From a bacterium (GTDB taxonomy: Bacteria; SAR324; NAC60-12), in assembly GCA_965205865.1 (NCBI GenBank), contig CBDBHR010000030.1, forward strand, positions 305,465-369,464: a stretch of 64,000 nucleotides of DNA, in the 5' to 3' direction. Position 1 is the first letter of the stretch. Each line of letters starts with the position of its first letter. Under the pieces are notes generated by a model. The model worked only from the letters and a program-made list of their open reading frames with translations, was not told the DNA's origin and did not search any database. A program made the position numbers and the translations under genes. Shown here piece after piece: positions 15,053 through 42,775 of this stretch.

Positions 15053-16298
15053 TAGTTAGGATTCTTCGTATAGGTGATAGCGCTGCCCCCTACCCAGTCG
15101 GTCAGCTCATAGGGTCCGGTGCCGACCAGGTTCCTCCAATCCTGAGCGTTGCCATGCTCCTTGATTACCTCGGGGGGATATATCCAGCCTGTCGGGTGGC
15201 TATTGTAGTAAATCTGATCCCGCGCATTGAAGTTTACCTGCTTCAGCTTGAAGACAACGGTGTACTTGTCGGGCGCCGTTATCGATTCAATTGGCAAGTT
15301 GGTGATACTGGCGTCGCCCGGGCTCTTCTCGGTGAAACCGCTGCCCAGGCCCGTTACCCGGTGGTAGGTAAACACGACATCATCGGCAACCAGCTCACGC
15401 CCGTTCATCGGCGCCTTATTGTGCCAGTGAATGCCCTTGCGGATTTTGAAGATTATGGTCAGGGGGTCTGGCATTTCGTAACTCTCCGCCAGATGTGGTT
15501 TAACAACCTCGATAGGAGTATGCCACCCCATATAGCCCCATTTGTCCCTGGGTATTGCCCAGTCCACCATGCCCAGCTTATCTAAAACGAGATTAATGGA
15601 TTTATACGGGAGCGTGCCCCACCAGGTGTCAGTGTGCGGCGGCTCGTCAAGGTCTGCGGCGAAAACAATTTGCCCACCGTATTGAGGCGCTTTTATCATC
15701 TTGCTAGTGGATGGGTCTTTGACCATTTCCTGGGCAAAAGCCACCGAGCCCATCGCCAGAGCAATCGCCCCCGACACACCAAACCACATCCATTTTTTTA
15801 TTCTTTGCTTAATCTTTTTCATAATAATTTCTCCAAATACGATTGAATTAAAAAGGGATTTCGAAAGGGATTTCGTACTCCCACCATTGCTTCTTTTTTT
15901 CATTCTATTCCTGATCTTTTTCATGATTATCTCCTTTCAAATACTATTGAATTAACAAGGGATTTCGAAAGTGAATTCGTACTCCCACCATTGCTCCTCT
16001 TATTTTTAGTAGCATCCATCATTTCTCCTTTCTTGTGATTTAGGGTGAAGGACGCACTCAGGCGTCCATGATTTTCCAAATACCCCATTTTCCTTCGGTT
16101 CCTGGAGCTTGGAACGTAGGACTTGGGGCTTGGAATTTGAAACGAGAAATCTTAAGGATCTTTCCCCTTCGGACTGGGCGCCACATCCGCGTCGCTTCCG
16201 GTACGCCGATGCACCGTATGCGGGGGGCCGCCTCCGGACCACCGAGCGCGGATCGCCGTGTGCAGACCAACCGTACCAACGGTCCCGTCGAGATGACA

Positions 16299-17456: not shown

Positions 17457-17484
17457 TTAATAATTAATTGGGAATTGGGAATTG

Positions 17485-17596
17485 GGATTTTGGATTTTGG
17501 ATTTTGGATTTTGGATTTTGGATTTTGGATTTTGGATTTTGGATTTTGGATTTTGGATTTTGGATTTTGGATTTTGGATTTTGGATTTTGGATTTT
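17485..17596. repeat. (GGATTTT)x16 heptamer tandem repeat
   Basis: Direct count; preceded by GGGAATT units. Confidence 0.95.
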
Positions 17597-17597
17597 G

Positions 17598-19115: not shown

Positions 19116-19309
19116 CTGGACTTTGGACATTCGATTTATTCTTTTAATTTTCATTATTCAATAATATCAGTTGGTTGAAATTCTGTAAAAAATTAATACA
19201 GGTTGCTGTTTTCCGTTTTTGATGATACGACCTGTATTAATTCCAATACAGGTTCGTAAGATGTTGATTTTATTAAACCCAAAAGTTGGATAAAATGTTC
19301 AAAGTCGAG
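19116..19309. mobile_element. 194-bp MITE, copy 1
   Basis: TIR CTGGACTTTGGACATT/AATGTTCAAAGTCGAG; 8-bp TSD AACATATT. Confidence 0.85.
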
Positions 19310-21554: not shown

Positions 21555-21748
21555 CTGGACTTTGGACATTCGATTTATTCTTTTAATTTTCATTATTCAA
21601 TAATATCAGTTGGTTAAAATTCTATAAAAAATTAATACAGGTTGCTGTTTTCCGTTTTTGATGATACGACCTGTATTAATTCCAATACAAATTCGTAAGA
21701 CATTGATTTTATTAAACCCAAAAGTTGGATAAAATGTTCAAAGTCGAG
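21555..21748. mobile_element. 194-bp MITE, copy 2
   Basis: Near-identical to 19116-19309; flanking direct repeat TTTCAGG. Confidence 0.85.
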
Positions 21749-28731: not shown

Positions 28732-29464
28732 GCAACGTTTTGAAAATCCATGGATGATGCGTGGAATCAAAATTCTGGAACCCCTTTCCCTCATGTGTCT
28801 TCTTGGATGCGGGATATGGATTTTCTCCGGCACTCCCACAGAAAAAGAAATGGGATTCGTACAAAAAATCATGTACCTTCACGTTCCCACGGTTATCGTG
28901 ACTTATACCGCATTTTTCGTGGTGTTTGCCTTTGGTATCGCTTATTTGTGGAAACAAGACTTGTTTTTTGACCAGGTGGCCAAATCATCTGCTCAAATAG
29001 GGTTGATTTTCTGCGGGCTTGTGTTGATCACCGGGGCTATCTGGGGCAAACCGACTTGGGGAACTTATTGGGTTTGGGATGCCCGCCTGACTACCACTCT
29101 ATTACTCTTTCTCATTTTTGCGGGATATTTTTTGCTGCGCGCCTTTTCGAAAGAAAGAGAAAGGGAAGCGCGATTTGCTTCTGTTTTGGGCATCATTGGA
29201 TTTTTGGACATTCCCATTATCCACAAGTCCGTGGAATGGTGGCGCACGCTTCACCAGCCTACCACTTTGTTGAAAGTGGGGACGGCAGGAGAAGCCAATC
29301 CGGCCATGCCTTCCGAGTTGCTCCTGCCACTGTTGGCCGCCATGGGGGCCATGTTGATTTTTTATCTCTATCTTCTCTTGTTGCGTCTCCACCTGGAACG
29401 TCAACATCACACCTTGCAAGAGAGGATTGTCGAATACGAAGGAGAGTCGCAGCCATGCCAATGA
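28724..29464 (+). CDS. ccmC: heme exporter CcmC
   Basis: YLHVP, WGKPTWGTYWVWDARLT, WWRTLHQ. Confidence 0.95.
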   Translation: MDKQRFENPWMMRGIKILEPLSLMCLLGCGIWIFSGTPTEKEMGFVQKIMYLHVPTVIVTYTAFFVVFAFGIAYLWKQDLFFDQVAKSSAQIGLIFCGLVLITGAIWGKPTWGTYWVWDARLTTTLLLFLIFAGYFLLRAFSKEREREARFASVLGIIGFLDIPIIHKSVEWWRTLHQPTTLLKVGTAGEANPAMPSELLLPLLAAMGAMLIFYLYLLLLRLHLERQHHTLQERIVEYEGESQPCQ

Positions 29465-29595
29465 ATTTGGAATTTGTTATCAGCACCTACGGGATTTGGA
29501 TGGCTACCATGATCATTTATGTTTGGCTCATGAGACGCAAATTGAAAAACTGCAACCATGCTTTGGAAAACCTGGATCAAGAGCAAAAATCGTGA
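29455..29595 (+). CDS. ccmD: heme exporter CcmD
   Basis: Short TM segment plus charged tail between ccmC and ccmE. Confidence 0.7.
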   Translation: MPMNLEFVISTYGIWMATMIIYVWLMRRKLKNCNHALENLDQEQKS

Positions 29596-30029
29596 AAAGC
29601 ACCTATAAATTTTTAATCGGTGGCTTGGTCATTTTTGCCATGCTGGCTGCCATATCGATTCAAGGCTTGCAGGAAATGACCGTGTTTTTTCATACGCCTG
29701 AGGAAATTCTCGCCGCTCCTGCCGATTTCGAAAACAAAACAATTCGCATCGGCGCCCTGGTGCAGCCCGGCAGTGTGGAATGGGATGCCAAAACCCTCAT
29801 CCTTTCCTTCAACGTGACGGAAGATTCCAAGCAATTCATTCCGGTGGTCTATGTAGGGGTGAAACCGGATATGTTTCGTGAAGGACAAGGGGTGGTCGTG
29901 GAGGGAAAAATGCAAGGCCAGGTATTCACAGCGCATCAACTGCTCGTAAAACACAGTGAAGAGTACAAACTGGACCCGGAAACTCATAAAAGTAAAAAAG
30001 ATTATTATAAAACCCTCAGTGAGTCCTGA
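29592..30029 (+). CDS. ccmE: heme chaperone CcmE
   Basis: GTG start; PDMFREGQGVVVEG, KHSEEY. Confidence 0.9.
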   Translation: MKSTYKFLIGGLVIFAMLAAISIQGLQEMTVFFHTPEEILAAPADFENKTIRIGALVQPGSVEWDAKTLILSFNVTEDSKQFIPVVYVGVKPDMFREGQGVVVEGKMQGQVFTAHQLLVKHSEEYKLDPETHKSKKDYYKTLSES

Positions 30030-30436
30030 AACAATCTCGAAATTCCGAATCACTCTTGATTCCTGAAAACAGTTTTCAAAAAAAAGAGCGATTCTCCTGC
30101 AAAAACAGCAAAATCTCTATATTTTCAAACACTCACCGGACTGATGTTCGATCTCTGGAATGGAAACGATTACCTGACCAGTGACGGCACGTATGCATTC
30201 ATGGCAACCAGGGAAGGATCATCCCAGGCAAAAGCTTTTGATTGCATCGGCGTGAGCATGCGGATCTGAATCATATGATCCAGCCTGATCAGACCATTTT
30301 TTGGCTCATGCCGAAGATGGACCGCTAAAGATTTTCTGAAAGCGTATCGTTGCGAAGGATTTAATGGGGTTTGGGAAATTGTCAGTTCTCACCGAACAGA
30401 TACTTACCGGACGGCGTATGCGATCAAACTAGAAAA

Positions 30437-30688
30437 TCATACCAGGTGGTCGGTCCCCAGCAGGTATTTTCCTGACGCTGGGCTCAGCCTGTCTATCAGG
30501 TGAATCTCGCTCACCCCGTAGGGGGCCAGAACCTCGGCAAAGATCGCCACCAGAATCAAGAACAAGGTGACCATCCCGCCAAACGTCCCGAGGGGCTTCT
30601 CCTTGAGAAGCCTGATGAAGAAATCCACAAACCGACCTCGTCGCTTGGGTTCACTGACTTTGGATGGGAATTCTATGGTGTCACTCAT
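30437..30688 (-). pseudogene. dppC 5' fragment
   Basis: EKPLGTFG..LLGTDHL then stop. Confidence 0.85.
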
Positions 30689-30707
30689 GTTCTCGATTTC
30701 TCTATAG

Positions 30708-30792
30708 GTAGGGCCGGTGGTCCGGCATTCCGGTGACGTCCCGGCCTGAAAAACGCATCGCTCGCATTGACCGGGACGTCACCCGGCCCTAC
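30708..30792. repeat. GTAG-type REP-like palindrome between dppB and dppC fragments
   Basis: GTAGGGCCGG..GTGACGTCCCGG..CCGGGACGTCAC..CCGGCCCTAC. Confidence 0.65.
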
Positions 30793-30814
30793 CGTATAGC
30801 TTTCGCGCCAGCGA

Positions 30815-31142
30815 CTATTCATACCGCACCCTCGGGTCCAGATAGGGATAAATCAGGTCGATGAGGAGATTGAGCAGCACCACCCCGGTGGCGAAAAAGA
30901 GGTTGATTCCGGAGACCATCGGGTAGTCTCTCTCATTGAGGGCATTCACCAAGAGACGGCCGATCGCCGGCAGGTTGAAGATGTTTCCCATGATCACCGC
31001 GCCCCCAACCAGGATCGGCAACTGCAGGCCGCAGAGAGGCTGGGCGGCCGCAGCGCGGCCAATAAGCCCAGCTGAACGCGTCACCACCGGGATGAGGGCA
31101 TTTTTGAGGGTGTGCCGGATCACCACGGCCCGCTCCTTCATT
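30815..31142 (-). pseudogene. dppB 3' fragment with hairpin insertion
   Basis: RHTLKNALIP..YPYLDPRVRYE. Confidence 0.85.
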
Positions 31143-31349
31143 TCAATCGAGAAAATAAAAGACAATTTAATATTTGACCCCTTTCCGCCACTCGGTCCTG
31201 ACCGCCTCTTCTTTTTGAAGCTCAAAAGGACACTTTCAGAGACACCGTAAGAGGGCGAGAGCAAAATCTATGAGGAGCAACTATTTCTCATGGCACTTGC
31301 CCCCTTTGAAGATTACACAATAGCAAAGATAAGACGTGGTTTCATGACA

Positions 31350-31557
31350 TGGAAGGAAGCAAACAGGGGACCGCCGCAGTCCCCCATCCCGGAGGCAAGT
31401 ATGCTACGAAAAATAGCGAGTGTTTTGAAGGCGCCGCCCGCTGGTCTTGAGGAAAAGTAAGTTTGAATGACCCCCATATTGGATCGCGCTATTGCAGGAA
31501 AGGAAGAACAGTGGTAAATTGCAAAGAGTTATTTCAGATTGAGGAAAAAAGGAAGTT
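31350..31557 (+). repeat. ~200-bp element X, copy A (two hairpins, sigma70 promoter, RBS)
   Basis: Homologous to 36001-36210, 38070-38270, 40801-41014; TTGCAG-N17-TAAATT at 31492-31520. Confidence 0.85.
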
Positions 31558-32232
31558 ATGAAAAGATTTTGGATCATTTGGTTGATGGGAGGCGTGAGCT
31601 GGTTGCTGAGCCATGGGGCGGTTTATGGGCAACCAACGCTGGGATTTACCCAGGAAGATCGAGAGCGCATCATTCGGCTGGAAACCACCTTAACGCTCTT
31701 TATGGAAGCTACTGATCAGCGGTTTATCGAATTACGGGAAGACATAAACAAACGCTTTGAACAGGTAGATAAACGCTTTGAACAGGTAGATCAGCGGTTT
31801 ATCGAATTACGGGAAGATATGAATATCCGCTTTATCGAATTACGGGAAGACATGAATAAACGCTTTGAACAAGCAGATAAGCGCTTTGCGCAGGTGGATC
31901 AACGCTTTGAAGACATGAACAACCGCTTTGAACAGATGATGAATACCTTGCAGCTGATTGCCGGCATTTTTACCGTCCTGACTCTGGGTGTCATCGGATT
32001 TGCCTATTGGGACCGACGCACTATTATTCGCAAAGCAAAACAAGAGACCCTGGAAACGCTGGAGCGGGACGCCGCTCCTAAAGAAGAAGCGATCATTGAC
32101 CGAGCTGTAGCGCAAGCGGTTCAAGAGATCAAAAAAGACAATCGTCTGCAAGACTTGATCGCTGCCTTACGCATATTGGCCGCCACTGACCCACCTCTGG
32201 CAAACGTTCTCAAAGAATTTCATTTATTATAG
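31558..32232 (+). CDS. membrane-anchored coiled-coil repeat protein, copy 1
   Basis: Signal peptide, RFIELREDMNK/RFEQVDK repeats, TM segment, WDRRT. Confidence 0.8.
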   Translation: MKRFWIIWLMGGVSWLLSHGAVYGQPTLGFTQEDRERIIRLETTLTLFMEATDQRFIELREDINKRFEQVDKRFEQVDQRFIELREDMNIRFIELREDMNKRFEQADKRFAQVDQRFEDMNNRFEQMMNTLQLIAGIFTVLTLGVIGFAYWDRRTIIRKAKQETLETLERDAAPKEEAIIDRAVAQAVQEIKKDNRLQDLIAALRILAATDPPLANVLKEFHLL

Positions 32233-32485
32233 ACTCCCTCACAACCCAGGGCGTTATCCTGGGCTAATATGTTAAGCCTTTTCAGGGCCACTTTGAGCAA
32301 TTTTGCACTTATAATTAAGATAAGTCCCGCATAGGGTGGGGTTGGGGGTGAGATGTCGCGGAAAGGGGTGAAGAAAAGTTTCTGTCCTTTTTCTTTCGCC
32401 CCTTGATATCTACTAGCCCCTTGATATCTACTATGATATAAAAAAAGTAGCGACTTTCCCATTAAGAGTTTCACCGGAGGATAAG

Positions 32486-32760
32486 ATGCCTTTTCCAGAA
32501 TATTTAACCTTAGCAGAGTTCAAAAAACTCCCGGTTGAGCACATTTTACTATCAATATCGTCAGAGCAGCAAAGTGTGACGGTGCAATTGCCGGATGGGA
32601 ATGAAATTATTATACGCCCTGAGTCTCCATTGAAACCTTTACCTGTATTAAAAGGGCATATTCCAAAAGGTTAGAAAGAAGCCATTTATCATGAGTCAGA
32701 GTGATTTGATCTTATTTGATGCAGGAATGTTCATTGGCGCATTATTACAGGAAAGAGATT
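32486..32760 (+). pseudogene. decayed antitoxin plus PIN toxin N-terminus
   Basis: LPVLKGHIPKG*KEAIY overlapping MSQSDLILFDAGMFIGALL. Confidence 0.5.
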
Positions 32761-33212
32761 GGAGTCAATTGCGTCAAAGCCATTTGGCATTTGGTCGTTT
32801 CATTCGGATTTTTCCTCGTCATCGCTTTATCCGTCAAGAGTGGAAAATCTCCGTTGCTCAATTGTGACAACATATTCATCACCTTCGTCCCTTGGCTGAT
32901 ACCATTGAGCGTTTAGCTCCAGCACTTTCCAGAGAAAGACCCAATGTAGAATATCCATGGAAATCTCCAGATAATCAACTCTATATCCTTGTCATTATGA
33001 ATTTAATGAAATACTGGAAGAACTAGAGAGTGTTCGAGGAAGGAATTTGCTAAAATTGATGAACAGGATCATTTCAGATGAGAAATGGTCTGTGGCTTTT
33101 GGAATAGGATAATAATATATTTCATTATAACTGTATTTCAGGAATTCTGAGATGAGGTGTCCCCATTGTGATTATGAGGAAGCTCAAGAAGTTTTCACAA
33201 CAAAAGCTCTTA

Positions 33213-33374
33213 TCCCTGAGCCCCTTGGATCAGGAGGCGCGAATATAGTCCTGCCGGAGAACCTCCAGCATCATGGTGCGCATCATCCGCACGGTGGCGG
33301 CCGCCGAGACCGTTCCTAGAATCACGCTGGGGATGAGGAACGCCGCGAGATTCCCCAGCGGGTCCACGGTGAAA
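33213..33374 (-). pseudogene. dppB internal fragment
   Basis: DPLGNLAAFLIPSVILG..RMMRTMMLEVLRQDYIR. Confidence 0.8.
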
Positions 33375-33498
33375 TTAGTGCTTTAAGATTCACTCCATCG
33401 GCACTAATTCTGCACGTTTCCAAACTAAACCAAATTAGAGTTGAGGAGAGTCCTCACCGTCATTCAGGAAAACCGAGAGGAATTTATCAGGAGATGGG

Positions 33499-33738
33499 AT
33501 GAAATTGTTACGCGGAACGAAAGTTGAACTCGATCAGAAATACCTCCATGTCACGCTAGCGGATGGGCGCATAATTTCGACGCCTCTTTCCTGGTATGAA
33601 GAACTGACTCATGCCACAGAAGACCAGCTCCATCACTATAAATTTCTTGGCAACGGATTGGTCATCGAGTGGCATGATTTGGATTTCCATCTGGATGTTC
33701 AAGAGATGAGTATGGAAATTCAAGAAAAAGCGGCCTGA
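33499..33738 (+). CDS. DUF2442-family antitoxin-like protein, preceded by a DUF4160-like 3' remnant
   Basis: LHVTLADGRIISTPLSWY..IEWHDLD; upstream ..IQENREEFIRRWDE. Confidence 0.75.
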   Translation: MKLLRGTKVELDQKYLHVTLADGRIISTPLSWYEELTHATEDQLHHYKFLGNGLVIEWHDLDFHLDVQEMSMEIQEKAA

Positions 33739-33899
33739 TTGGCAGAAGTAAGGATAGGCGTTTTTGACAAACTTCGGTAGCAGGGTATGCCATGCGGTGG
33801 TCCCCTCGTAGGCTTGGCGGAGCTGGCAAAGGAAGGGTCCCCTGGAGAGGGGCTCCGACTTACCCGGGCGGAGTGCCGCAATATAGGTTTCCTCTTCTT

Positions 33900-34449
33900 T
33901 CCTGGCTGCCAGAAAATAGTCATTCTCTTTAATGCCCACCACAGCGCCACGGATGACTCGGGAGCCGCCGACACCTCCGTCAACCCCCAGGACCACGATG
34001 ATCTGGAGGAGCCCTTGTCACACAATGGACATGATGGTTAACTAGAGCAGCAGCCCCTGGAAGGCCATCCAGGTATCGACAAAGCGCTGCACCGCCAGGT
34101 CCACTTTCCCTCCAAGGTATCCGGAAGTGCCGCCGATCAGGACCGCGATGAGTACGTTGAGCGCCGTCGCAGCCAAACCGACGGATAAGGAAATACGAGC
34201 TCCGTAGAGCAGGCGGTTAAATAAGTCCCCTCCCAAGTGGTTGGTCCCCAACAGATATTGGACGGATGGGGCTTGCAGTATGTCGGCCAGGTGCATTTCC
34301 CGATAGGGATAAGGCGCCAGAACATCGGCAAAAAGCGCCACCACAATAAAGAGCAAGACGATCATCCCGCAGGCCTTCCCCAGGGGCTTCTCCCGCCACA
34401 GCCGGATGAAGAAATCCGCAAACCGGCCCCGTCGCTTGGATTCACTCAT
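33900..34449 (-). pseudogene. dppC 5' half with internal stop
   Basis: EKPLGK..GARISL..VQRFVD; GIKENDYFLAAR. Confidence 0.85.
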
Positions 34450-34945
34450 ACCGTACTCTCGGGTCCAGATAGGGAAAAATCAGGTCGATGAGGAGATTGA
34501 GCAGCGCTACCCCGGTGGCGAAAAACAGATTGATTCCGGAGACCATCAGGTAGTCTCGCTCATTGAGGGCATTCACCAGGAAACGACCGAGCTCCGGCAG
34601 GTTGAAGATGTTCTCCATGATCACCGCGCCCCCGACCAGGATAGGCAACTGCAGGCCGATCGGAGCACCACCGGGATGATGGCATTTTTGAGGGTGTGCC
34701 GGATAATCACGACCCGCTCCCTGTGTCTTTTGGACCAGGCGGTTCGGATATAATCCTGCCGGATCACCTCCAGCATCATGGTCCGGGTCAAGCACATAGT
34801 CGTCTCCGAGACCCACATGCCCAAAATTATGGCGGGAATGGCGAACATTTGAAGGTTCCCCAGGGGGGCATCGGTAAATCGAATCAGTTCCATTGAAGGT
34901 GATCACTACCACCAGACGGAGGGGTAAATGATGACGACAGTCCCG
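34442..34945 (-). pseudogene. dppB 3' half, frameshifted
   Basis: QDYIRTAWSK and LQLPILVGG..LDPRVRYE in different frames. Confidence 0.85.
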
Positions 34946-35156
34946 ATGAACTTTGTCATTCTCTGCCCAATAAGCTAAATGAGGTCCTTTGCTTGACGAA
35001 AAGTTAATCATAAACTGTTACGTGTCCCCAGTTTTCACTTACCTCAGTTAAAAATTGAAATAAATCTGGTCCGTTGAAGTTCGTTGAGCAACTTGTCTCT
35101 CTGCCAAATCTTTGCTACACTTTTATTCAGTGGAATGACTCATCCTGAGAAGAAAG

Positions 35157-35411
35157 ATGGAATCAAAAATGACGATTGAATATCCGGCAAATTTGCCTGA
35201 TATTTTGCAAGCCACTCGTTTGCAGTTTGAGCAGGAAGCACGAATGGCGATGGCTGTGAAACTGTTTGAAATGAAGCGCATCTCTTCAGGAATAGCGGCT
35301 GCTTTGGCTGGGATGGATCGTGTTTCATTTTTACTCCAGTTGCACCGATATGGAACCACAATGATCGATTTAGAAGAAGAAGAGTTGATCTCGGATATGG
35401 AAAATGCCTGA
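35157..35411 (+). CDS. UPF0175-family antitoxin
   Basis: AVKLFEMKRISSGIAAALAGMDRVSFL. Confidence 0.85.
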   Translation: MESKMTIEYPANLPDILQATRLQFEQEARMAMAVKLFEMKRISSGIAAALAGMDRVSFLLQLHRYGTTMIDLEEEELISDMENA

Positions 35412-35904
35412 AGCTGCTAAAATTGTCGTCAATACGGGTCCGATTTTGGCGCTTGTCGCAGCATTAGGTGATTTGAAAGTGTTACGCGCTCTCTACCAAG
35501 AGGTTTGGGTTCCTTTTGAAGTCTGCCAGGAAATAGAAGCAGGAGGTTCTCCAGGTTTTGCAGTCGAGGCATTTTTAGCAGAGCGCTGGTTCACCAAAAC
35601 TTCCACCTCCCTTGAAATACCTTCTTTACTCCTCAATTCTCTGGATCGTGGAGAGGCTTCCGTTATTCAACTGGCCCTGGAAAAAGAGATTCCCACAGTC
35701 TGTATTGATGAAGCAGCGGGTAGGCGTGTTGCCCGGTTAAGCGGATTAAACCTCACAGGATCAATCGGAATTTTACTACGCGCTCATCACGAAGTGTACC
35801 CATTTTCCATAGAAGACGCCATTCAAGGCATGCAGGATAAAGGAGTTTGGCTCAGCCAGAGCATCATTGATTTCGTGCTGACTCAAATACAAGAAAATCA
35901 CTAG
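35404..35904 (+). CDS. DUF3368/PIN-domain toxin
   Basis: VVNTGP, LDRGEASVI, IDEAAGRRVA, GSIGIL. Confidence 0.85.
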   Translation: MPEAAKIVVNTGPILALVAALGDLKVLRALYQEVWVPFEVCQEIEAGGSPGFAVEAFLAERWFTKTSTSLEIPSLLLNSLDRGEASVIQLALEKEIPTVCIDEAAGRRVARLSGLNLTGSIGILLRAHHEVYPFSIEDAIQGMQDKGVWLSQSIIDFVLTQIQENH

Positions 35905-36000
35905 CGTATGCGAATCAAAACCAATTATGGTTGAAGTTCAAGAGCATGCGCAATGACTTCTGTTTCACCACAATCAAAGGTTGAATCATTTTGTTAAGGT

Positions 36001-36210
36001 AGAAGGAAGAAGACAGGAGACCACTAAAGCAGTCCCCCATCCCGGAGAATATTATGTTACAAAAATTGGCGGGTGTTTTGAAGGCGCCGCCCGCTGGTCT
36101 TGAGGAAAAGTGAGCTTGAATGACCCCAATATTGGATCGCACTATTGCAGGAAAGGAAGAACAGTGGTAAACTGCAAATAGTTATTTCAAATTGAGGAAA
36201 AAAGGAAGTT
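36001..36210 (+). repeat. element X, copy B
   Basis: Visual alignment with copy A. Confidence 0.85.
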
Positions 36211-36768
36211 ATGAGAAGATTTTGGATCACTTTGTTTCTGGGAGCAATGAGCTTTTTGCTGAGCCATGTAGTGGTTTATGGGCAACAAACGCTCGGATTT
36301 ACCCAGGATGATCGAGAGCGTATCATTCGGCTGGAAACCACCTTAACGCTCTTTATGGAAGCTACTGATAAGCGGTTTATCGAATTACGGGAAGATATGA
36401 ACAACCGCTCGAAGCAGGTTGACAAGCGCTTTGTCGAATTACGAGAAGACATGAACAAGCGCTTTGAACAAATGATGAATACCTTACAACTGATTGCCGG
36501 CATTTTTACCGTCCTGACTCTGGGTGTCATCGGATTTGCTTATTGGGACCGACGCACCATCATTCGCAAAGCCAAAGAAGAGACTCTGGAAACGCTGGCA
36601 GGGGAGGCCGCCCCTAAAGAACAAGCGACAATCGACCAGGCTGTGGCGCAAGCGGTGCAGGAAATCAAAAAAGACCAGCGTCTGCCAGACTTGCTCTCGG
36701 CTTTACGAAAACTGGCCGCCACCGACCCGCCTCTGGCGAACGTGCTCAAAGAATTTCATTTATTGTAG
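36211..36768 (+). CDS. membrane-anchored coiled-coil repeat protein, copy 2
   Basis: Paralog of 31558-32232 with fewer repeats. Confidence 0.8.
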   Translation: MRRFWITLFLGAMSFLLSHVVVYGQQTLGFTQDDRERIIRLETTLTLFMEATDKRFIELREDMNNRSKQVDKRFVELREDMNKRFEQMMNTLQLIAGIFTVLTLGVIGFAYWDRRTIIRKAKEETLETLAGEAAPKEQATIDQAVAQAVQEIKKDQRLPDLLSALRKLAATDPPLANVLKEFHLL

Positions 36769-36826
36769 CTTCAATCACGCTCCTCACTACTTAGAGGGAG
36801 GGGAAGCGCTTATCCGGAAAACCCCT

Positions 36827-37228
36827 TTATTCATACCGCACTCTCGGGTCCAAATAGGGATAAATCAGGTCGATCATGAGATTGAGCAGCACCACCGCGG
36901 TGGCGAAAAAGAGGTTGACTCCGGAGACCATCGGGTAGTCTCGGTCATTGAGAGCACTCAGCAAGAGACGGCCGAGGCCCGGCAGGTTGAAGATGTTCTC
37001 CATGATCACGGCGCCTCCCACCAGGATCGGCAACTGCAGGCCGCAGAGAAGCTGGGCGGGCGCAGCGCGGCCAATAAGCCCAGCTGAACGCGTCACCACC
37101 GGGATGAGAGCATTTTTGTGGGTGTGCCGGATCACCACGGCCCGCTCCTTGAGCCCCTTACCAGGCGGTGCGGATATAGTCCTGTCTTAAGACCTCCAGC
37201 ATCATGGTGCGCATCATTCGCAGGGTGA
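36827..37228 (-). pseudogene. dppB 3' fragment with hairpin insertion
   Basis: RMMRTMMLEVLRQDYIRTAW..LDPRVRYE. Confidence 0.85.
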
Positions 37229-37304
37229 CTTTACATTCCATGTTCTGGTTCCTTCATAGCAATTTCTTATGATAAAGACCGAAGCTCAATTAAGGGAAGA
37301 AAAG

Positions 37305-37700
37305 TTAGGCAGCTAGGGTTTTTACATGAGAGTATTCCAATATATTTTGATCGACTGTCATTAAAGGATAATCATAAACTCTCGCAGTGGCCACTATGAT
37401 CTGATCGGCTGGGTCCCGATGGAAATCTCCGGGAAGTTGGGTGGATTCTACCACAATCCGTGGCGTGAGTTCTATCGAATGGACACATGGATAGACCAAG
37501 GCTATATTTAACCACTCTTCGAGGGGATCTGACAAATGCAACCGGCCATATTTTACCAGTCTGGCAACCTCCCAACACGAGATTGTGCTGATGGCCAGAC
37601 CTTCTTCGGCTTGTTCACCCAGCCATTTGAGTTTTTCCGGGCTCAGCCGATCACTGCCATGAACCCACCAGACCCAGATATGGGTATCCAGAAGAATCAT
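37305..37700 (-). CDS. VapC-family PIN toxin
   Basis: LLDTHIWVWW, ISCWEVA, HRDPADQIIVATA. Confidence 0.9.
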   Translation of the reverse strand: MILLDTHIWVWWVHGSDRLSPEKLKWLGEQAEEGLAISTISCWEVARLVKYGRLHLSDPLEEWLNIALVYPCVHSIELTPRIVVESTQLPGDFHRDPADQIIVATARVYDYPLMTVDQNILEYSHVKTLAA

Positions 37701-37912
37701 TTCAGCGCCTCCCAGTCTTCCAAAGCAACGGGAGCGGTAGGATCTTCGTAGGAGAAAGGTTTCCCACGTAAAGGATAGCGTGGAGCGGGCTGAGGTTTGG
37801 GAATAGTTTTGAGCACAATGACTTCCACCATTTCTCCTGCTTGAAAGGGTAGATGATTTAGCACCAAAGTGCCATCTTCGGAGAGAGTGGTTTCAATACG
37901 ATGGGCTTGCAT
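37697..37912 (-). CDS. cognate antitoxin
   Basis: DGTLVLNHLPFQAGEMVEVIV..YEDPTAPV..DWEA; overlaps the toxin start. Confidence 0.75.
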   Translation of the reverse strand: MQAHRIETTLSEDGTLVLNHLPFQAGEMVEVIVLKTIPKPQPAPRYPLRGKPFSYEDPTAPVALEDWEALK

Positions 37913-38069
37913 GTTTGCCTTTCCTGAAAATGCAGTTTTTTTTCCAATGCATGGTCTTATTTTGGATTTGTTCAATCGCTTTTATTTTTATACAGCATTC
38001 CCTTGAATTTCTACAGAAAAAAATTTTACATCAGCTCCCCTGTAACGCTCTGATAGGGAATCCAATTGA

Positions 38070-38270
38070 GTAGCACGAAAGGCAGAAGACAGGGGACCCC
38101 TAAAGCAGTCCCCTATCCTGGAGGTAAGTCTGTTATAAAAAAATGGCGGGTGTTATGTAGGCACCCCCCGCTGGCCTTGAGGAAAAGTGAGTTTGAATGA
38201 CCCCCATATTGGATCACACGATTGCATGAAAGGAAAAACAGTGGTAAACCAAGCCGTTATTTCAAATTTC
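38070..38270 (+). repeat. element X, copy C
   Basis: Visual alignment; precedes a TA pair rather than a coiled-coil gene. Confidence 0.8.
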
Positions 38271-38405
38271 CCATCAAGAGATTAACCATCGGACTCACTG
38301 AATAAGGATGGGCGCTCAGTTGGGATGTGTAGGGATCACACACTGAAAAATTCCTCTTCTCTTCCCAATCATTATGGCTCAATGAACCTTAGAAAAAAAA
38401 GCAGC

Positions 38406-38651
38406 ATGAACACAGCAGCAACCCAGAAAGTAGAACTCCATCAAGCAATCAATCGCATCCCTGAGAATAAGCTGGAAGCCGCAAAAGTCTACTTGCATTC
38501 GCTGGCCCAAGAAGGGGCAAGCAACGAAGCTAAAAAAGGGAGCTTAGAAGGGATATGGGAAGGGACAGGACTTGAAAACCTCGACTTTGAAGCTGAATTG
38601 AAAAAACTGAGAAAAGAAATGAGTGAGGCGATCTTATCCAGGAAATTTTAA
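38406..38651 (+). CDS. putative antitoxin
   Basis: INRIPENKL..SLEGIWEG; coupled to the PIN gene. Confidence 0.65.
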   Translation: MNTAATQKVELHQAINRIPENKLEAAKVYLHSLAQEGASNEAKKGSLEGIWEGTGLENLDFEAELKKLRKEMSEAILSRKF

Positions 38652-39034
38652 TGAAATACCTTGTAGATACCGTTGCCCTAAATCGTCATTTCACGAGAAA
38701 TAAAAATATCGGGAAACAAGCCCGTGAGATCCTTTCCAATCCTGACGAAAACGTGTTTTATATCTCCATTGTGAGCCTCATGGAGATTTTGTATTTATCA
38801 GAAAAAAACAGGATAGATATTTCATTGAAAGAAACACTAAGACGGATCAATGCCAAAGAAAGCTATCAGATTGTCGAACTTGATGCAGAAATTCTCCAAG
38901 TAGCCGAAACTGTCCCATTTCCTGAGCTTCATGACCGATTAATACTTGCGACGGCAAAATGGCTTGAGGTTCCCATCATTTCAAGTGATAAGGATTTCCA
39001 AAATGTTGAAGGTATCACGACCATTTGGAAATAA
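38651..39034 (+). CDS. VapC-family PIN toxin
   Basis: YLVDT, SIVSLMEILYL, ELHDRLILATA, SSD. Confidence 0.88.
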   Translation: MKYLVDTVALNRHFTRNKNIGKQAREILSNPDENVFYISIVSLMEILYLSEKNRIDISLKETLRRINAKESYQIVELDAEILQVAETVPFPELHDRLILATAKWLEVPIISSDKDFQNVEGITTIWK

Positions 39035-39229
39035 TCCATCTTATCCTGTTTTGCTCTCCAATGTTCTCATTTCAAGTACCCTTCCCAGGAACAAGAAAGG
39101 CAACGGTTTTCCCAGGAGAGCCTTTCGTAGCACGGAAGGCAGAAGACGGGGGACCACCGCAGTAGTCCCCTATCCTGGAGGTAAAGCAGTGGAAACTCTG
39201 GAATTGTGAGAACAACCCCTTTTGCGTGC

Positions 39230-39533
39230 TTACCCATTGAAAGGATTGATCAGTCTGGCCAGGAGGCTTCTTTTGCGTTTCCCCGTGGTGCCGTAACTAC
39301 CCTCACCTCCGCGCAGTCTGGGATCGAGCAGGTCTTCCATCGCGTCACCGAACATGTTGAGGGAATAGACGGTAATCGTCAGGAAAAGCCCCGGCCAGAG
39401 CGCCAGCCAAGGGGCCGCCTCCATGTACTGACGCCCTTCGCGGCTGAGCAGTCCCCCCCAACTGGGAATCTCGACGGGCAGCCCGAATCCGAGGAAGCTC
39501 AGCGAAGCCTCGGCAATGATGACGCCGCCAATT
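39230..39533 (-). pseudogene. dppC 3' fragment
   Basis: [30 protein letters not shown]. Confidence 0.85.
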
Positions 39534-39641
39534 TCGGGCAGAAGCGTGGGAACGCTTAAGGCTCTTGCCTTTCCTCATCCGTTTCGATATTTTTCCATAT
39601 ATTATTCTATATTGGAAGTTTTCCTGAAACTGGAAGACAGT

Positions 39642-40184
39642 ATGGATAAAAAAAGTAGCGTTCCCATTCAACAGCACATCCACTTGATCCGAGGAAAGGA
39701 GGTGATTATCGATTCAGATTTAGCGGAACTCTATGGCGTACCAACAAAGCGGCTCAATGAACAAGTTAAGCGTAACATAGAACGTTTTCCAGAGGACTTT
39801 ATGTTTCAGATGACGAAAGAGGAGCTAGCTTATTGGAGGTCGCAAATTGCGACCTCCAATCCATCCAAAGCCAAAATGGGTCTACGCAGAAAACCCCACG
39901 TATTTACAGAACAGGGAGTGGCAATGTTATCCAGTGTGCTGAACAGCCCGATAGCAGTCCAGGTTAATATCCAGATCATGCGTGCTTTTGTCCAATTCCG
40001 CAGGATGCTGGCCTCTAATCAAGAACTTCTTGCCAAAATTACGGCAATGGAGGCAAAGTATGATGAGCAGTTCAAGATGATCTTTGAAGCGATCCGCTCC
40101 ATGATCGAACAAAAAACTACAAAACGACAAATAGGATTTGCAGTTCCTTCTAATAACCAAGGAATAATATCAAATGGAGGATAA
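39642..40184 (+). CDS. ORF6N (KilA-N-like) DNA-binding protein
   Basis: [38 protein letters not shown]. Confidence 0.9.
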
Positions 40185-40249
40185 TTTGCCTGTACCTTTT
40201 CTTATATTACATAAAATGGTGGGTGTTTGGAAGGCACCGTCCGCTGGCC

Positions 40250-40576
40250 TTATTCGTACCGCACCCGCGGGTCCAGATAGGGATAAATCAGGTCGATGAG
40301 GAGATTGAGCAGCACCACCCCGCTGGCGAAAAACAGGTTGACTCCGGAGACCATCGGGTAGTCTCTCTCATTGAGGGCATTCACCAAGAGACGACCTATC
40401 CCCGGCAGGTTGAAGATGTTCTCCATGATCACGGCGCCCCCGACCAGGATCGGCAACTGCAGGCCGCAGAGAGGCTAGGCGGCCGCAGCGCGGCCAATAA
40501 GCCCAGCTGAACGCGTGACCACCGGGATGAGGGCATTTTTGAGGGTGTGCCGGATCACCACGATCCGCTCCTTCAT
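40250..40576 (-). pseudogene. dppB 3' fragment; hairpin insertion carries a stop
   Basis: Near-duplicate of 30815-31142. Confidence 0.85.
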
Positions 40577-40800
40577 TTCAATCGAGAAAATAAAAGACAA
40601 TTTAATATTTGACCCCATTCTAATATTTGACCCCTTTCCGCCACTCGGTCCTGACCACCTCTTCTTTTTGAAGCTCAAAAGGACACTTTCAGAGACACCG
40701 TAAGAGGGCGAGAGCAAAATCTATGAGGAGCAACTATTTCTCATGGCACTTGCCCCCTTTGAAGATTACACAATAGCAAAGATAAGACGTGGTTTCATGA

Positions 40801-41014
40801 CACGGAAGGAAGCAAACAGGGGACCACCGCAGTAGTCCCCCATCCTAGAGGACATTATGTTACAAAAAATGGCGGGTGTTTGGAAAGCACCGCCTGCTGG
40901 CCTTGAGGAAAAGGGAGCTTGAATGACCCCCATATTGGATCGCACTATTGCAGGAAAGGAAGAACAGTGGTAAACTGCAAATAGTTATTTCAAATTGAGG
41001 AAAAAAAGGAGGTT
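40801..41014 (+). repeat. element X, copy F
   Basis: Visual alignment. Confidence 0.85.
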
Positions 41015-41626
41015 ATGAGAAGATTTTGGATCACTTTGTTTCTGGGAGCAATGAGCTTTTTGCTGAGCCATGTAGTGGTTTATGGGCAACAAATGCTCGG
41101 ATTTACCCAGGATGATCGAGAGCGTATCATTCGGCTGGAAACCACCTTAACGCTCTTTATGGAAGCTACTGATAAGCGGTTTATCGAATTACGGGAAGAT
41201 ATGAACAACCGCTTTGAACAGGTAGATCAGCGGTTTATCGAATTACGGGAAGATATGAACAACCGCTCGAAGCAGGTTGACAAGCGCTTTGTCGAATTAC
41301 GAGAAGATATGAACAACCGCTTTGAACAGATGATGAATACCTTGCAACTGATTGCCGGCATTTTTACCGTCCTGACTCTGGGTGTCATCGGATTTGCTTA
41401 TTGGGACCGACGCACCATCATTCGCAAAGCCAAAGAAGAGACTCTGGAAACGCTGGCAGGGGAGGCCGCCCCTAAAGAACAAGCGACAATCGACCGGGCT
41501 GTGGCGCAAGCGGTGCAGGAAATCAAAAAAGACCAGCGTCTGCCAGACTTGCTCTCGGCTTTACGAAAACTGGCCGCCAACGACCCGCCTCTGGCGAACG
41601 TGCTCAAAGAATTTCATTTATTGTAG
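41015..41626 (+). CDS. membrane-anchored coiled-coil repeat protein, copy 3
   Basis: Nearly identical to copy 2 plus one 18-aa repeat unit. Confidence 0.8.
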   Translation: MRRFWITLFLGAMSFLLSHVVVYGQQMLGFTQDDRERIIRLETTLTLFMEATDKRFIELREDMNNRFEQVDQRFIELREDMNNRSKQVDKRFVELREDMNNRFEQMMNTLQLIAGIFTVLTLGVIGFAYWDRRTIIRKAKEETLETLAGEAAPKEQATIDRAVAQAVQEIKKDQRLPDLLSALRKLAANDPPLANVLKEFHLL

Positions 41627-41683
41627 CTTCAATCACGCTCCTCACTACTAGAGGGAGGGGAATCGCTTATCCGGAAAACCCCT

Positions 41684-42646
41684 TCACTCATACCGCACTC
41701 TCGGGTCCAGATAGGGATAAATCAGGTCGATGAGGAGATTGAGCAGCACCACCCCGCTGGCGAAAAACAGGTTGACTCCGGAGACCATCGGGTAGTCTCG
41801 GTCATTGAGGGCATTCACCAAGAGACGCCCGATCCCTGGCAGGTTGAAGATGTTCTCCATGATCACCGCGCCCCCGACCAGGATCGGCAACTGCAGGCCG
41901 ATCAGGGTGATAACCGGGATGAGGGCATTTTTGATGGTGTGCCGGATAATCACTACCCGCTCCCTGAGTCCCTTGGACCAGGCGGTCCGGATATAGTCCT
42001 GCCGGAGCACCTCCAGCATCATGGTGCGCATCATCCGCATGGTGGCGGCAGAGGAGGCCGTTCCCAGAATCAGGCTGGGAATGAGGAACACCGCCAGATT
42101 CCCCAGCGGGTCTTCGGTGAAAGAAACCAGCTCCAGCGGCGGCGCCCAACCCCACCAGATGGCCGGGTAGATCATGACCATAATGCCCAGCCAGAAGTTC
42201 GGCGTGGCCAGGCCGATGACGGCGAGGGAGCGCCCCACGTAGTCGGCGGCCGTATCCTGGCGAATCGCCGAGTAGATGCCGATTGGCAGCGCGATCACGA
42301 GCCCGATGAGGATTGCCATCAAACCGAGCTCAATGGTGACCGGCAGTCTCTCTAATATCGCCTCCTCCACCGAGTTTCTCGTAAACAGGGATTCGCCAAG
42401 GCTGCCGTGCAGGAAAATATCTCCTATCCATCGTCCATACTGCACGTAAACAGGCACGTCCAATCCCAGCATACGCTCAAGAGCTTCACGGTCTACATCC
42501 CATTGCACATTGAACATTCCCATCCTGCCCACGATGACGTCTATGACATCGCCGGGGATGAAGCGCACCGAGAGGAAGACCAGGATGCTCAAGATAAACA
42601 GGGTGGGGATTATCAGCAATAACCGCCTGATGATATAGGCTCTCAT
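41684..42646 (-). CDS. dppB: ABC permease, DppB/OppB type (intact)
   Basis: MRAYIIRRLL start at 42646; complete motifs. Confidence 0.9.
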   Translation of the reverse strand: MRAYIIRRLLLIIPTLFILSILVFLSVRFIPGDVIDVIVGRMGMFNVQWDVDREALERMLGLDVPVYVQYGRWIGDIFLHGSLGESLFTRNSVEEAILERLPVTIELGLMAILIGLVIALPIGIYSAIRQDTAADYVGRSLAVIGLATPNFWLGIMVMIYPAIWWGWAPPLELVSFTEDPLGNLAVFLIPSLILGTASSAATMRMMRTMMLEVLRQDYIRTAWSKGLRERVVIIRHTIKNALIPVITLIGLQLPILVGGAVIMENIFNLPGIGRLLVNALNDRDYPMVSGVNLFFASGVVLLNLLIDLIYPYLDPRVRYE

Positions 42647-42775
42647 GTGACACACCTTATCAGTCGTTGGATGAGGACAGAATCTCCTCTTCGATGATTC
42701 AATGAGTAAAGGAGCCGGGAAGCTTGAGCCTCCCAGCTCCCTTTTCCCCGAGCTAAGCCACAAGGGATGAAACCC

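Follow-up and report, generated by a model that had tools for sequence, protein, structure and literature searches.

The window, a 64,000-nt stretch of the genome under study (G000), carries one of three dpp operons of the BlaI / BlaR1::SBP type. This operon is headed by a BlaI-type repressor gene (45617..46033, minus strand; Penicillinase_R, E 1e-33), followed on the same strand by a gene that fuses BlaR1 (peptidase M56) to a family-5 solute-binding protein (42776..45596; Peptidase_M56 and SBP_bac_5). The assembly splits the fusion gene into two frames near 44020-44045; in the sister species genome (G001) it is a single uninterrupted ORF of 936 aa, and the read contigs of runs X1 and X5 have one base fewer at 44045 than the assembly. 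An intact dppB-type permease gene comes next, also on the minus strand (41684..42646; 320 aa; BPD_transp_1, E 1e-33), with no dppC behind it. Compared with its G001 orthologue it has a dN/dS of 0.27.

A 12-kb array of permease pieces and cargo lies 3' of this operon. Its four dppB 3' fragments, all on the minus strand, have stop codons at 40250, 36827, 34442 and 30815, and we name them f40, f36, f34 and f30. Fragment f40 (40250..40571) carries a 42-nt insertion with a TAG in it (~40467-40514), f36 (36827..37227) carries the insertion (~37044-37097) and a 2-nt frameshift, f34 (34442 to ~34971, in the unit 33901..34971) is frameshifted and has no insertion, and f30 (30815-31136, in the unit 30437..31264) again has the insertion (~31032-31085). 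Listed in ascending order and not by fragment, homology to dppB begins at gene nt ~455, 603, 684 and 684 in the four fragments, whose lengths range from ~320 to ~530 nt. There is also an internal dppB piece (33213..33374, ~aa 174-236). Two dppC N-terminal pieces with an OppC_N domain lie in the f30 unit (30437-30822) and at the end of f34, where the native overlapping start is kept (33901-34449); a dppC 3' piece encodes aa 192-309 (39272..39568). All of these are on the minus strand as well. The original prediction thus describes a real array, and its list of co-oriented pieces (four 3' ends and one internal piece of dppB, three pieces of dppC) is correct. Its statement that the dppB fragments are non-identical also holds: compared over the final 213 nt, among themselves and with the intact gene, they are 88-96% identical. 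The 5' breakpoints, said to vary, do so among some fragments, but f30 and f40 have one in common.

The cargo consists of three toxin-antitoxin pairs, an ORF6N gene, a DUF2442 gene and three paralogous coiled-coil (cc) genes. Going away from the intact dppB, the first cc gene (41015..41626, plus strand) encodes a signal peptide, coiled-coil repeats and a TM segment, and upstream of it lies an S region together with a sequence X and an element D (40572..41014). Then come the anti-repressor-like ORF6N gene (39516..40184, plus strand), which is unique in the genome and was not found in G001; a PIN toxin-antitoxin pair (38325-39034, in the plus-strand block 38074..39184) between an S-like piece (38074-38268) and a 58-nt repeat of that piece (39127-39184); and a VapBC-like pair (37305..37975, minus strand; PIN toxin 37305-37700), again unique in the genome. 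The remaining units are a partial S region with the second cc gene (36002..36768, plus strand; gene 36211-36768), a UPF0175 antitoxin / DUF3368 (PIN-like) pair (35157..35904, plus strand) with a 93% identical partial copy at C23:100334-100581, the DUF2442 gene (33499..33738, plus strand), and an S region with the third cc gene (31265..32232, plus strand; gene 31558-32232). The X sequence recurs 5' of f30 (31137-31264), in common with f40. Element D is terminator-like, ~105 nt long (40798-40906), and directly follows dppB stop codons at C23:105501, C23:111309, C26:220106 and window position 40251. Pfam identified the ORF6N, UPF0175/DUF3368 and DUF2442 genes and both PIN pairs (the VapBC-like one included) and confirmed the predicted cargo of toxin-antitoxin pairs, ORF6N and coiled-coil genes. 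A single gene, however, underlies all three coiled-coil copies (84-98% nucleotide identity), so that not every cargo item is distinct.

No recombinase or transposase family was detected by Pfam in the 26 main ORFs or in 77 further stop-to-stop frames of at least 55 aa in 30050-41700, as had been predicted, and the 36 ORFs of the remaining window likewise contain no recombinase or integrase, IntI included. Among inverted repeats that might resemble attC, ten pairs of 16-19 nt were found, none bracketing cargo units; Rfam gave no match. The hallmarks of a diversity-generating retroelement are absent as well: there is no reverse transcriptase domain among the main ORFs, the further frames or the ORFs of the rest of the window, and mismatches are distributed over all bases rather than being specific for adenine.

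In short-read contigs from three DNA runs of three studies no unique cargo stretch is missing, and the contigs extend into the adjoining repeats, where they break. The order of the units across the repeats is that of the assembly alone. The repeats are 91-96% identical and the assembly contains small indel errors relative to the read contigs (1 nt at 44045 and 18 nt at 32398), as would be expected if paralogous dpp copies from elsewhere had been collapsed into one locus. Such a misassembly is nevertheless scarcely credible. Independent contigs from the three studies join every unique piece of cargo to its flanking repeat at single-copy depth (9.2-14.6 for cargo in run X1, against 10.7 for the single-copy ccmE flank), the fragments differ from every other genomic dppB copy, the contig is 1.38 Mb long, and the closed genome of the sister species contains the same kind of array. 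No convincing structural variant was seen among the three studies. With all cargo stretches present in each, this leans toward a static array, the outcome that the original prediction had named as speaking against itself.

Several stretches of the array are copies of one composite module, consisting of the dppB 3' part, a convergent cc gene, the upstream S region and then a 5'-truncated dppB with the 42-nt insertion. Positions 30816-31770 match 40251-41227 (91.3% over 977 nt), 36367-37043 match 41225-41900 (96.0% over 677 nt), and 36002-36463 match 40805-41267 (92.9%). Fragments f30 and f40 have in common their 5' breakpoint and ~650 nt of upstream X-S-cc 5' sequence, and their junction is also present at C30:877579; the junction of the dppB end with the cc 3' end is common to the intact gene and f36. 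Because at least three stretches are copies of this module with common breakpoints, segmental duplication has clearly taken place. As judged from these alignments, the module was copied at least twice with its breakpoints kept, and the array does not consist of captures that took place independently.

An intact gene with a train of co-oriented 3' repeats and intervening cargo behind it is also the textbook signature of tandem site-specific integration. In that case an integrase, since lost or encoded elsewhere, would have inserted genomic islets at an att site in the 3' end of dppB, in the way known from tRNA and tmRNA genes. In the accessible part of their description, the Dehalococcoides ssrA islands exemplify such integrase-borne tandem accretion at a tmRNA gene, with an intact target and repeated 3' copies with cargo (PMC3146451). 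The present array resembles them in these respects but has no integrase or integrase remnant and no constant repeat of att length. Its repeats (~320 to ~530 nt) lack a common 5' edge save where a junction was copied; from the stop codon onward they run into three different contexts (dppC, the cc 3' end and element D); and the cargo includes copies of the same cc gene. We consider this origin very improbable. The serial capture that was originally proposed finds no support in an integron-like, polar form, given the copied module, the three end contexts, the lack of attC-like repeats, and the absence of an identity gradient, the fragments being 95.8, 92.5, 92.6 and 94.4% identical to the intact gene with no fall with distance.

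Could the fragments be silent cassettes from which the intact permease receives sequence through gene conversion, in the manner of pilS, vls or msp2 pseudogenes? They lack promoters, are only partial copies and lie beside an intact gene in its own orientation, and recombination among the paralogs is pervasive. Moreover, the last 71 codons are open in all four, and 32 of 53 codons that differ from the intact gene are synonymous; between f30 and f40, which are truncated at the same point, 7 codon differences are synonymous and 4 non-synonymous. Open 3' ends and a synonymous bias are also what is expected if functional paralogs donate sequence to the fragments. Rather than a variable region, the fragments span the 3' third of the gene, its best-conserved part (94-97% among many paralogs, against 87-92% at the 5' end); they have no array-specific variants in common with the intact gene, and the ~100 intact paralogs would be far better donors. 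The disabling 42-nt hairpin insertion of f30, f36 and f40, which in f40 includes a stop, occurs only in defective dppB copies and in no uninterrupted copy of G000 or G001, so that transfer from fragment to intact gene across the insertion is not seen. A silent-allele reservoir, also part of the original prediction, is therefore highly unlikely. The confinement of the hairpin insertion to dead copies is a separate small puzzle; under the tentative displacement proposal set out below, the insertion would mark the displaced copies, either as a site-specific element or as a "poison" segment spread by conversion.

The 4.7-Mb genome contains ~100-120 dppABC operons and dozens of remnants. Matches at E <= 1e-60 number 107 in G000 and 90 in G001; 19 other relatives have 0-6 apiece. 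The 161 merged dppB loci of G000 comprise 119 full-length genes, 26 3' pieces, 8 5' pieces and 8 internal pieces; after filters, 132 remain (99, 22, 5 and 6, respectively). Pieces from the 3' end also exceed those from the 5' end in dppA (23 versus 11) and dppC (21 versus 14). For dppB the 22:5 excess has a two-sided binomial probability of 0.0015, in which copies within an array are not independent. For 21 of the 3' fragments from across the genome, the DNA just beyond the 5' breakpoint differs in kind, being made up of multi-copy IS/MITE-like repeats, pieces of dpp genes or unique sequence. The permease genes of these operons are mosaic: among 26 close full-length copies, four-gamete incompatibility was 30% for sites less than 10 nt apart and ~46% beyond, and none of 500 permutations gave a value as low. 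No signal was obtained in a PHI-type test whose window was 100 nt (p 0.48), which counts against the recombination-based reading that we favor below.

A second array was found 3' of a BlaR1-type operon on contig C23. The orthologous locus of G001 contains a single fragment, a single cc gene, a piece of a PPDK_N pseudogene and a transposase of the IS256 family; the orthologous arrays of the two species hold different units. Another G001 array, at 4.03 Mb, is a mosaic of pieces found in the G000 window, C23, C26 and C30, at 88-98.75% identity compared with 79-83% for the backbone. G001:4039711-4041146 matches the block 38077-39511 at 93% identity; between the species the PIN block reaches 96% over 1047 nt and one dppA gene 98.75% over 1680 nt. 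By alignment, some blocks occur in non-orthologous arrays of the two species at 93-94% identity (93-96% for one block), compared with ~80% for the backbone, with their edges inside repeats (element D, dppC, dppB). The proposal that permease sequence acts as a homology anchor for serial capture is partly supported by these data: there is no recombinase, repeated dpp sequence is the only plausible substrate, the species differ in their units, and non-orthologous arrays have blocks in common at identities above the backbone.

These observations bear on serial polar accretion by homology-anchored integration of incoming dpp-linked DNA, akin to the C-terminal displacement of Rhs and T6SS loci. An incoming piece would pair with dppA or dppB and bring a new dppB 3' end with trailing DNA; an illegitimate join inside the resident dppB would then displace the resident 3' end downstream as a 5'-truncated orphan. 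This would account for an intact gene trailed by 3' fragments that have lost their 5' parts at different breakpoints and all point the same way, for the genome-wide excess of 3' over 5' pieces, and for the homology of the sequence upstream of f30 and f40 to DNA after a full-length dppB (C23 105501-105763), as expected for an incoming tail. The high-identity dppA gene and PIN block point to recent movement of dpp-linked DNA between species, and, in the accessible part of the paper, an integrase-free, homology-anchored route to orphan arrays is already in print for other gene families, namely Rhs and T6SS loci (Kirchberger et al. 2017, PMC5361080). On the other hand, at least two of the four fragments come from copying an existing junction and not from separate displacements, identity shows no gradient with distance from the intact gene, and the three studies yielded no structural variants. 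Of the 22 3' fragments in the whole genome, only 12 lie within 12 kb of a full dppB that is upstream and in the same orientation (8 have one downstream). Over its last 413 nt the intact G000 gene is about as close to the intact G001 gene (~90%) as to the G001 fragment (~91.5%). We regard this origin as unlikely, though deserving attention. Equally tentative is the broader proposal that the dppB 3' end, the cc gene and element D form portable homology by which BlaR1::SBP-type loci of two co-resident, sponge-associated species stack or swap blocks, toxin-antitoxin pairs included, without a recombinase, a Rhs-style displacement working on a nutrient-transporter family. If so, the "orphan array" principle of Rhs and T6SS would extend from polymorphic toxins to transporters, and co-resident symbionts would have a route to trade uptake modules and toxin-antitoxin pairs.

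The reading that we think probable is a scrapyard formed without a recombinase: the cell's general recombination machinery, with repeated dpp-family sequence as the only plausible substrate, would have both assembled and rearranged the array. Copies would be made by unequal crossing-over or tandem duplication, blocks would pass from array to array, and probably also between the two co-resident species, through homologous recombination within the repeats (dppB 3' end, dppC, cc and D), and units would later be trimmed by deletions and insertions. Rhs-like C-terminal displacement could be an additional mechanism. Toxin-antitoxin pairs would be kept because they resist loss, and promoterless 5'-truncated permease pieces because they are harmless, while expressed 3'-truncated membrane proteins would be selected against. 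Only through this assumed selection does the scrapyard reading explain the excess of 3' pieces, which counts against it. So do two further observations. The third cc copy is 86.4% identical to C26:21646-22062 and 85.0% to the cc gene at 41015-41626; the third module copy is not clearly closest to its neighbors, and the copies must therefore be either old or in part derived from outside. In their final 213 nt the fragments resemble unlinked paralogs about as closely as they do one another, and local duplication alone would thus be insufficient. The array itself would have no dedicated function. With ~100 dppABC operons in 4.7 Mb, ordinary homologous recombination could generate modular arrays that resemble integrase-made islands, a caution for island and integron callers.

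Orphan arrays of 3' fragments formed by C-terminal displacement have reportedly been described at Rhs, CDI and T6SS loci by Jackson et al. 2009 and Koskiniemi et al. 2014. As far as the accessible part of the literature on such loci goes, they likewise have a full gene, co-oriented 5'-truncated 3' pieces, small genes and no dedicated recombinase, with homology to the main gene proposed as the anchor and a horizontal origin proposed for the modules. Their 3' tips, however, are the variable toxic part, each with a cognate immunity gene, whereas here the tips are 91-96% alike and form the best-conserved stretch of a nutrient permease, the small genes belong to unrelated toxin-antitoxin pairs, the tips are followed by dppC pieces, cc copies or unrelated cargo, and the array is partly duplicated rather than serially acquired. 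Chromosomal integrons also hold strings of small, mostly unrelated genes, toxin-antitoxin pairs among them, but the present array has no IntI, attI or attC, has genes in both orientations and uses gene fragments as spacers. In the minimal mobile elements of Neisseria, cargo is exchanged between genomes by homologous recombination in conserved flanking genes, without mobility genes, as is proposed here; those flanks are single-copy core genes and the cargo is replaced, whereas here it is stacked. With segmental duplication or NAHR among paralogs followed by pseudogene decay, the array has in common its repeated breakpoints with flanking junk, the very large gene family, the mosaic paralogs and the heterogeneous decay breakpoints. 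What sets it apart is its unusual density (seven dpp pieces and three cc genes within 12 kb) and the occurrence of blocks in both species at identities above that of the backbone.

Domain search assigns, all on the minus strand, a BlaI-type repressor (45617-46033), a fusion of BlaR1 (peptidase M56) to a family-5 solute-binding protein (BlaR1::SBP, 42776-45596) and an intact dppB-type permease gene (41684-42646). In this pairing the sensor domain of the M56 protease BlaR1 is replaced by the solute-binding protein, and the pair heads dpp operons at three loci in each of two genomes: the source genome (window 42776-46033; C23:101711-104527 and C26:24948-27791, on two other contigs) and the closed genome of its sister species, G001 (190340-193150 and two more).

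No dppC lies behind the intact dppB; the next 11 kb, in descending coordinates, are pieces of the array. A coiled-coil (cc) gene on the plus strand (41015-41626), with its upstream S region (40718-41014), is followed by f40 (40250-40571), the first of four dppB 3' fragments that we name by window position in kb. Next come an ORF6N gene (39516-40184), a dppC 3' piece (39272-39568), a PIN toxin-antitoxin pair (38325-39034) with S pieces on both sides, a VapBC-like pair (37305-37975) and f36 (36827-37227). A second cc gene (36211-36768) with partial S and a UPF0175/DUF3368 pair (35157-35904) precede f34 (34442 to ~34971), which is overlapped by the native start of a dppC N-terminal piece (33901-34449). 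The remainder comprises a DUF2442 gene (33499-33738), an internal dppB piece (33213-33374), a third cc gene (31558-32232) with S, and f30 (30815-31136) with another dppC N-terminal piece (30437-30822), beyond which ccmE is next. The pieces and coordinates listed in the original prediction were right, and its description of the array as recombinase-free holds: neither the 26 main ORFs nor 77 further frames (stop-to-stop, >=55 aa) gave a match to a recombinase or transposase domain. An Rfam search of 29500-46500 at E <= 1 gave a sole match, a chance one of snoRNA type (E 0.14).

Between the last dppC piece and ccmE (30126-30500) lies a short repeat of 41 nt, with 22-23 genomic copies elsewhere at up to 97.6% identity. 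Farther away in the window, insertion of a DDE transposase gene (13419-14948) interrupts the neighbouring dppA (12060-15924), and pieces similar to pyruvate formate-lyase at 8385-9686 seem to belong to a broken gene. Self-comparison also revealed a tandem array of 7-nt period (17468-17597), a ~150-nt tandem duplication after blaI (46014-46372) and a 194-nt direct repeat (19116-19309 versus 21555-21748, 96.9%) that flanks a NUDIX gene region.

Contigs from three DNA sequencing runs, of three studies, were aligned to window 29000-44500. Every unique cargo stretch was recovered, each extending into adjoining repeat. Contigs of run X1 cross between cargo and repeat at, for example, 32128-33930, 35258-36047, 37193-38895 and 39451-40265, and X1 depth over cargo is 9.2-14.6 versus 10.7 at the ccmE flank. 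Run X5, from a slightly different strain, has the identical set of cargo stretches. Because the read contigs end at repeats, the order of the units is taken from the 1.38-Mb assembly contig. No well-supported joint indicative of missing or added units was present in the read contigs of the three runs; joints that might be taken for structural variants (such as 34400>36829 in X1, with a side of 21 and 37 letters between) are short-sided and probably paralog-derived, and were not counted. We consider misassembly of the array unlikely. The assembly has one base at 44045 and 18 at 32398 that the read contigs lack, which suggests long-read indel errors. Without base 44045 the BlaR1::SBP gene, whose G001 counterpart is one 936-aa ORF, would lose its apparent frameshift; since the read contigs lack that base, the frameshift is probably an assembly error. 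The other difference is a small one of tandem-repeat length, an 18-nt unit (32355-32420) being absent from the X1 read contig. Contigs of RNA library X17 cover several cargo genes, but as contigs carry no transcription level or strand.

Self-comparison and alignment give f30 and f40 the same 5' breakpoint. They also have in common a non-dpp sequence (X) of ~130 nt, all of S and the first 210 nt of cc, and 30816-31770 and 40251-41227 are 91.3% identical. A second junction, consisting of the dppB stop, a 57-nt spacer and the cc 3' end, is common to the intact gene and f36 (36367-37043 versus 41225-41900, 96.0%), and a third copy of S and cc lies at 36002-36463 (92.9% to 40805-41267). As judged from these alignments, the shared breakpoints and junctions, together with the third S-cc copy, show that a composite module (dppB 3' part, cc, S, X and truncated dppB) was copied at least twice. 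Genome-unique cargo is confined to the toxin-antitoxin pairs, ORF6N, DUF2442 and two spacer stretches. The cc proteins, of 185-224 aa, have a predicted signal peptide and transmembrane segment, with coiled-coil repeats of ~11 residues that vary in number. Six more cc genes are present in the source genome, and in this genus they are convergent to dpp operons. In a metagenome collection without this genus the cc protein matched 13 loci, none of them close in sequence (33-46% identity) or adjoining dpp genes; Protein Atlas, NCBIfam and PHROGs returned unnamed or chance-level matches only.

Exactly past the stop codon, the four fragment ends and the intact gene meet three downstream contexts: f34 and f30 run into dppC, the intact gene and f36 into the cc 3' end, and f40 into element D. 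Site-specific integration would be expected to leave a single attachment site, which these different contexts contradict, and is an unlikely origin of the fragments. D is ~105 nt long, with a terminator-like hairpin for the minus strand and ~15-20 genomic copies, several directly after dppB stops (among them C23:105501, C23:111309 and C26:220106); it occurs at 40798-40906, 38074-38180, 39127-39184, 40202-40251, 36002-36110 and 31350-31455.

The reading that we prefer, with some reserve, is that a recombinase-free scrapyard made the array. Its first step, segmental duplication or unequal crossing-over of the composite module, is shown by the copies; the second would be homologous block exchange between arrays, probably also between both species, a route that we infer from the blocks they are shown to share; and units would then be trimmed by deletions and insertions. 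Upstream of 21 fragment breakpoints genome-wide, the sequence varies in kind, from IS/MITE-like repeats and dpp pieces to unique DNA, and this heterogeneity points to many unrelated truncation events. Searched with the intact protein, the 4.74-Mb source genome has 161 merged dppB loci (119 full-length, 26 3' pieces, 8 5' pieces and 8 internal), of which 132 remain when contig ends and distant family members are dropped (99, 22, 5 and 6, respectively). G001, with 4.26 Mb, has 90 dppB matches at E <= 1e-60 and the 19 other relatives have 0-6 each. The excess of dppB 3' pieces is real (22:5), but copies within arrays are non-independent; the corresponding counts are 23 and 11 for dppA and 21 and 14 for dppC. 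The scrapyard reading accounts for it only on the assumption that expressed 3'-truncated permeases would be harmful and promoterless 3' pieces would not.

Among 26 close full-length copies, four-gamete failure at biallelic sites is 30% for pairs <10 nt apart and ~46% beyond, and none of 500 permutations gave a value as low. Given this distance-dependent incompatibility, the permease genes are mosaic throughout. The distance-resolved count was used in place of a coarser test of PHI type, which gave no recombination signal in a 100-nt window (p 0.48). In the last 213 nt, the most conserved part of dppB, the array fragments resemble unlinked paralogs about as closely as they resemble each other, and they form no supported clade. 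The last 71 codons are open in all four, and 32 of the 53 codons that differ from the intact gene are synonymous. Of the codon differences between f30 and f40, which share their truncation and so diverged after it, 7 are synonymous and 4 non-synonymous. Most simply, the fragments would be overwritten again and again by functional paralogs, and would not just be decaying copies of their neighbour. The intact dppB has a dN/dS of 0.27 against its G001 orthologue, and its 3' end is about equally identical to the intact gene and to the fragment of G001, which speaks neither for nor against displacement. That the fragments act as a silent-cassette reservoir for the transporter is unlikely. A DGR reading was rejected, there being no reverse transcriptase and no adenine bias in the mismatches.

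Three of the four array fragments carry an in-frame 42-nt insertion (~31032-31085, 37044-37097 and 40467-40514) with a possible hairpin (predicted -17.3 kcal/mol, z -2.1). The source genome has 12 copies, at one fixed dppB position, plus one ~100-nt mini-fragment in unrelated AT-rich DNA; locations outside the array are C30:78732-78806, on the contig of the window, and 9 other dppB loci. G001 has 4 copies, at 4 loci, and the 19 other relatives have none. In the assembly, all carriers have a truncation, a frameshift or a stop, although assembly indels could explain some frameshifts. Over 66 pairs, mean identity is 93.6% for the insertion versus 78-79% for the flanks, and the insertion is the more similar part in 60. 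On the 3' 213 nt the carriers do not group as a single clade, and starred branches force at least three changes; in a tree on the 132 nt preceding the insertion, only 4 of 103 branches are starred. With a conserved insertion in diverged flanks and carriers outside any one clade, the insertion has spread between copies that had diverged before, either through short-tract conversion or through site-specific insertion. An exact search for the hairpin in the genome contig collection gave 0 matches.

Backbone identity between the two species is 79-83%. The orthologous locus in G001 (187-200 kb) has PEPCK, BlaI, the BlaR1::SBP gene and the intact dppB (86-87%), beyond which there is no more than a piece of a PPDK_N pseudogene, two small ORFs, a single dppB fragment, an IS256-family transposase and a single cc gene; the ccmE side is located elsewhere. 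A search of G001 for the UPF0175/DUF3368 and ORF6N stretches found nothing. The C23 array, which sits behind another BlaR1-type operon, has its G001 orthologue at 0.25 Mb (87.8% over 7 kb), where the units differ again. Unit content changes between species. A candidate dppB crossover between these last two arrays was discarded, as the G001 fragment is simply collinear with the first C23 fragment (84%) and there is no clean joint.

Non-orthologous arrays share blocks above backbone identity, with block edges in repeated sequence (D, dppC, dppB). The PIN block (38077-39511; S piece, pair, 58-nt repeat and dppC piece) matches G001:4039711-4041146, the site of a different array with three cc genes, at 93% identity, rising to 96% in the first 1047 nt. 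This 4.03-Mb array is a mosaic, and its pieces match the C23 array (94%, 1618 nt), C26 and two C30 dppA genes (98.75% over 1680 nt; 97% over 796 nt). The former dppA, a solute-binding-protein gene (C30:885615-887294 versus G001:4043328-4045007), stands against a backbone of ~80%, and its identity points to a recent transfer between species. The 'unique' spacer 32409-32751 is another block above backbone identity (94% to G001:2369403-2369743, adjoining dppA there).

Polymorphic toxin genes are known to have recombinase-free orphan arrays of 3' fragments, and paralogs commonly undergo segmental duplication; unusual here are the nutrient-permease family, the scale of the paralog pool and the block exchange between arrays and species. 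A literature search of incomplete coverage, confined to main texts, found no published account of this dpp expansion or of such permease arrays. The main rival reading is serial displacement, a principle that PMC5361080 proposes for the orphan arrays of Rhs and T6SS loci. It would produce the 3' bias without further assumptions and is in keeping with the recent transfers between species; we nevertheless regard it as a doubtful account of this locus. It does not fit the copied junctions, the absence of an identity gradient along the array or the weak genome-wide polarity, a co-oriented full gene lying within 12 kb upstream of 12 of the 22 3' fragments and downstream of 8.
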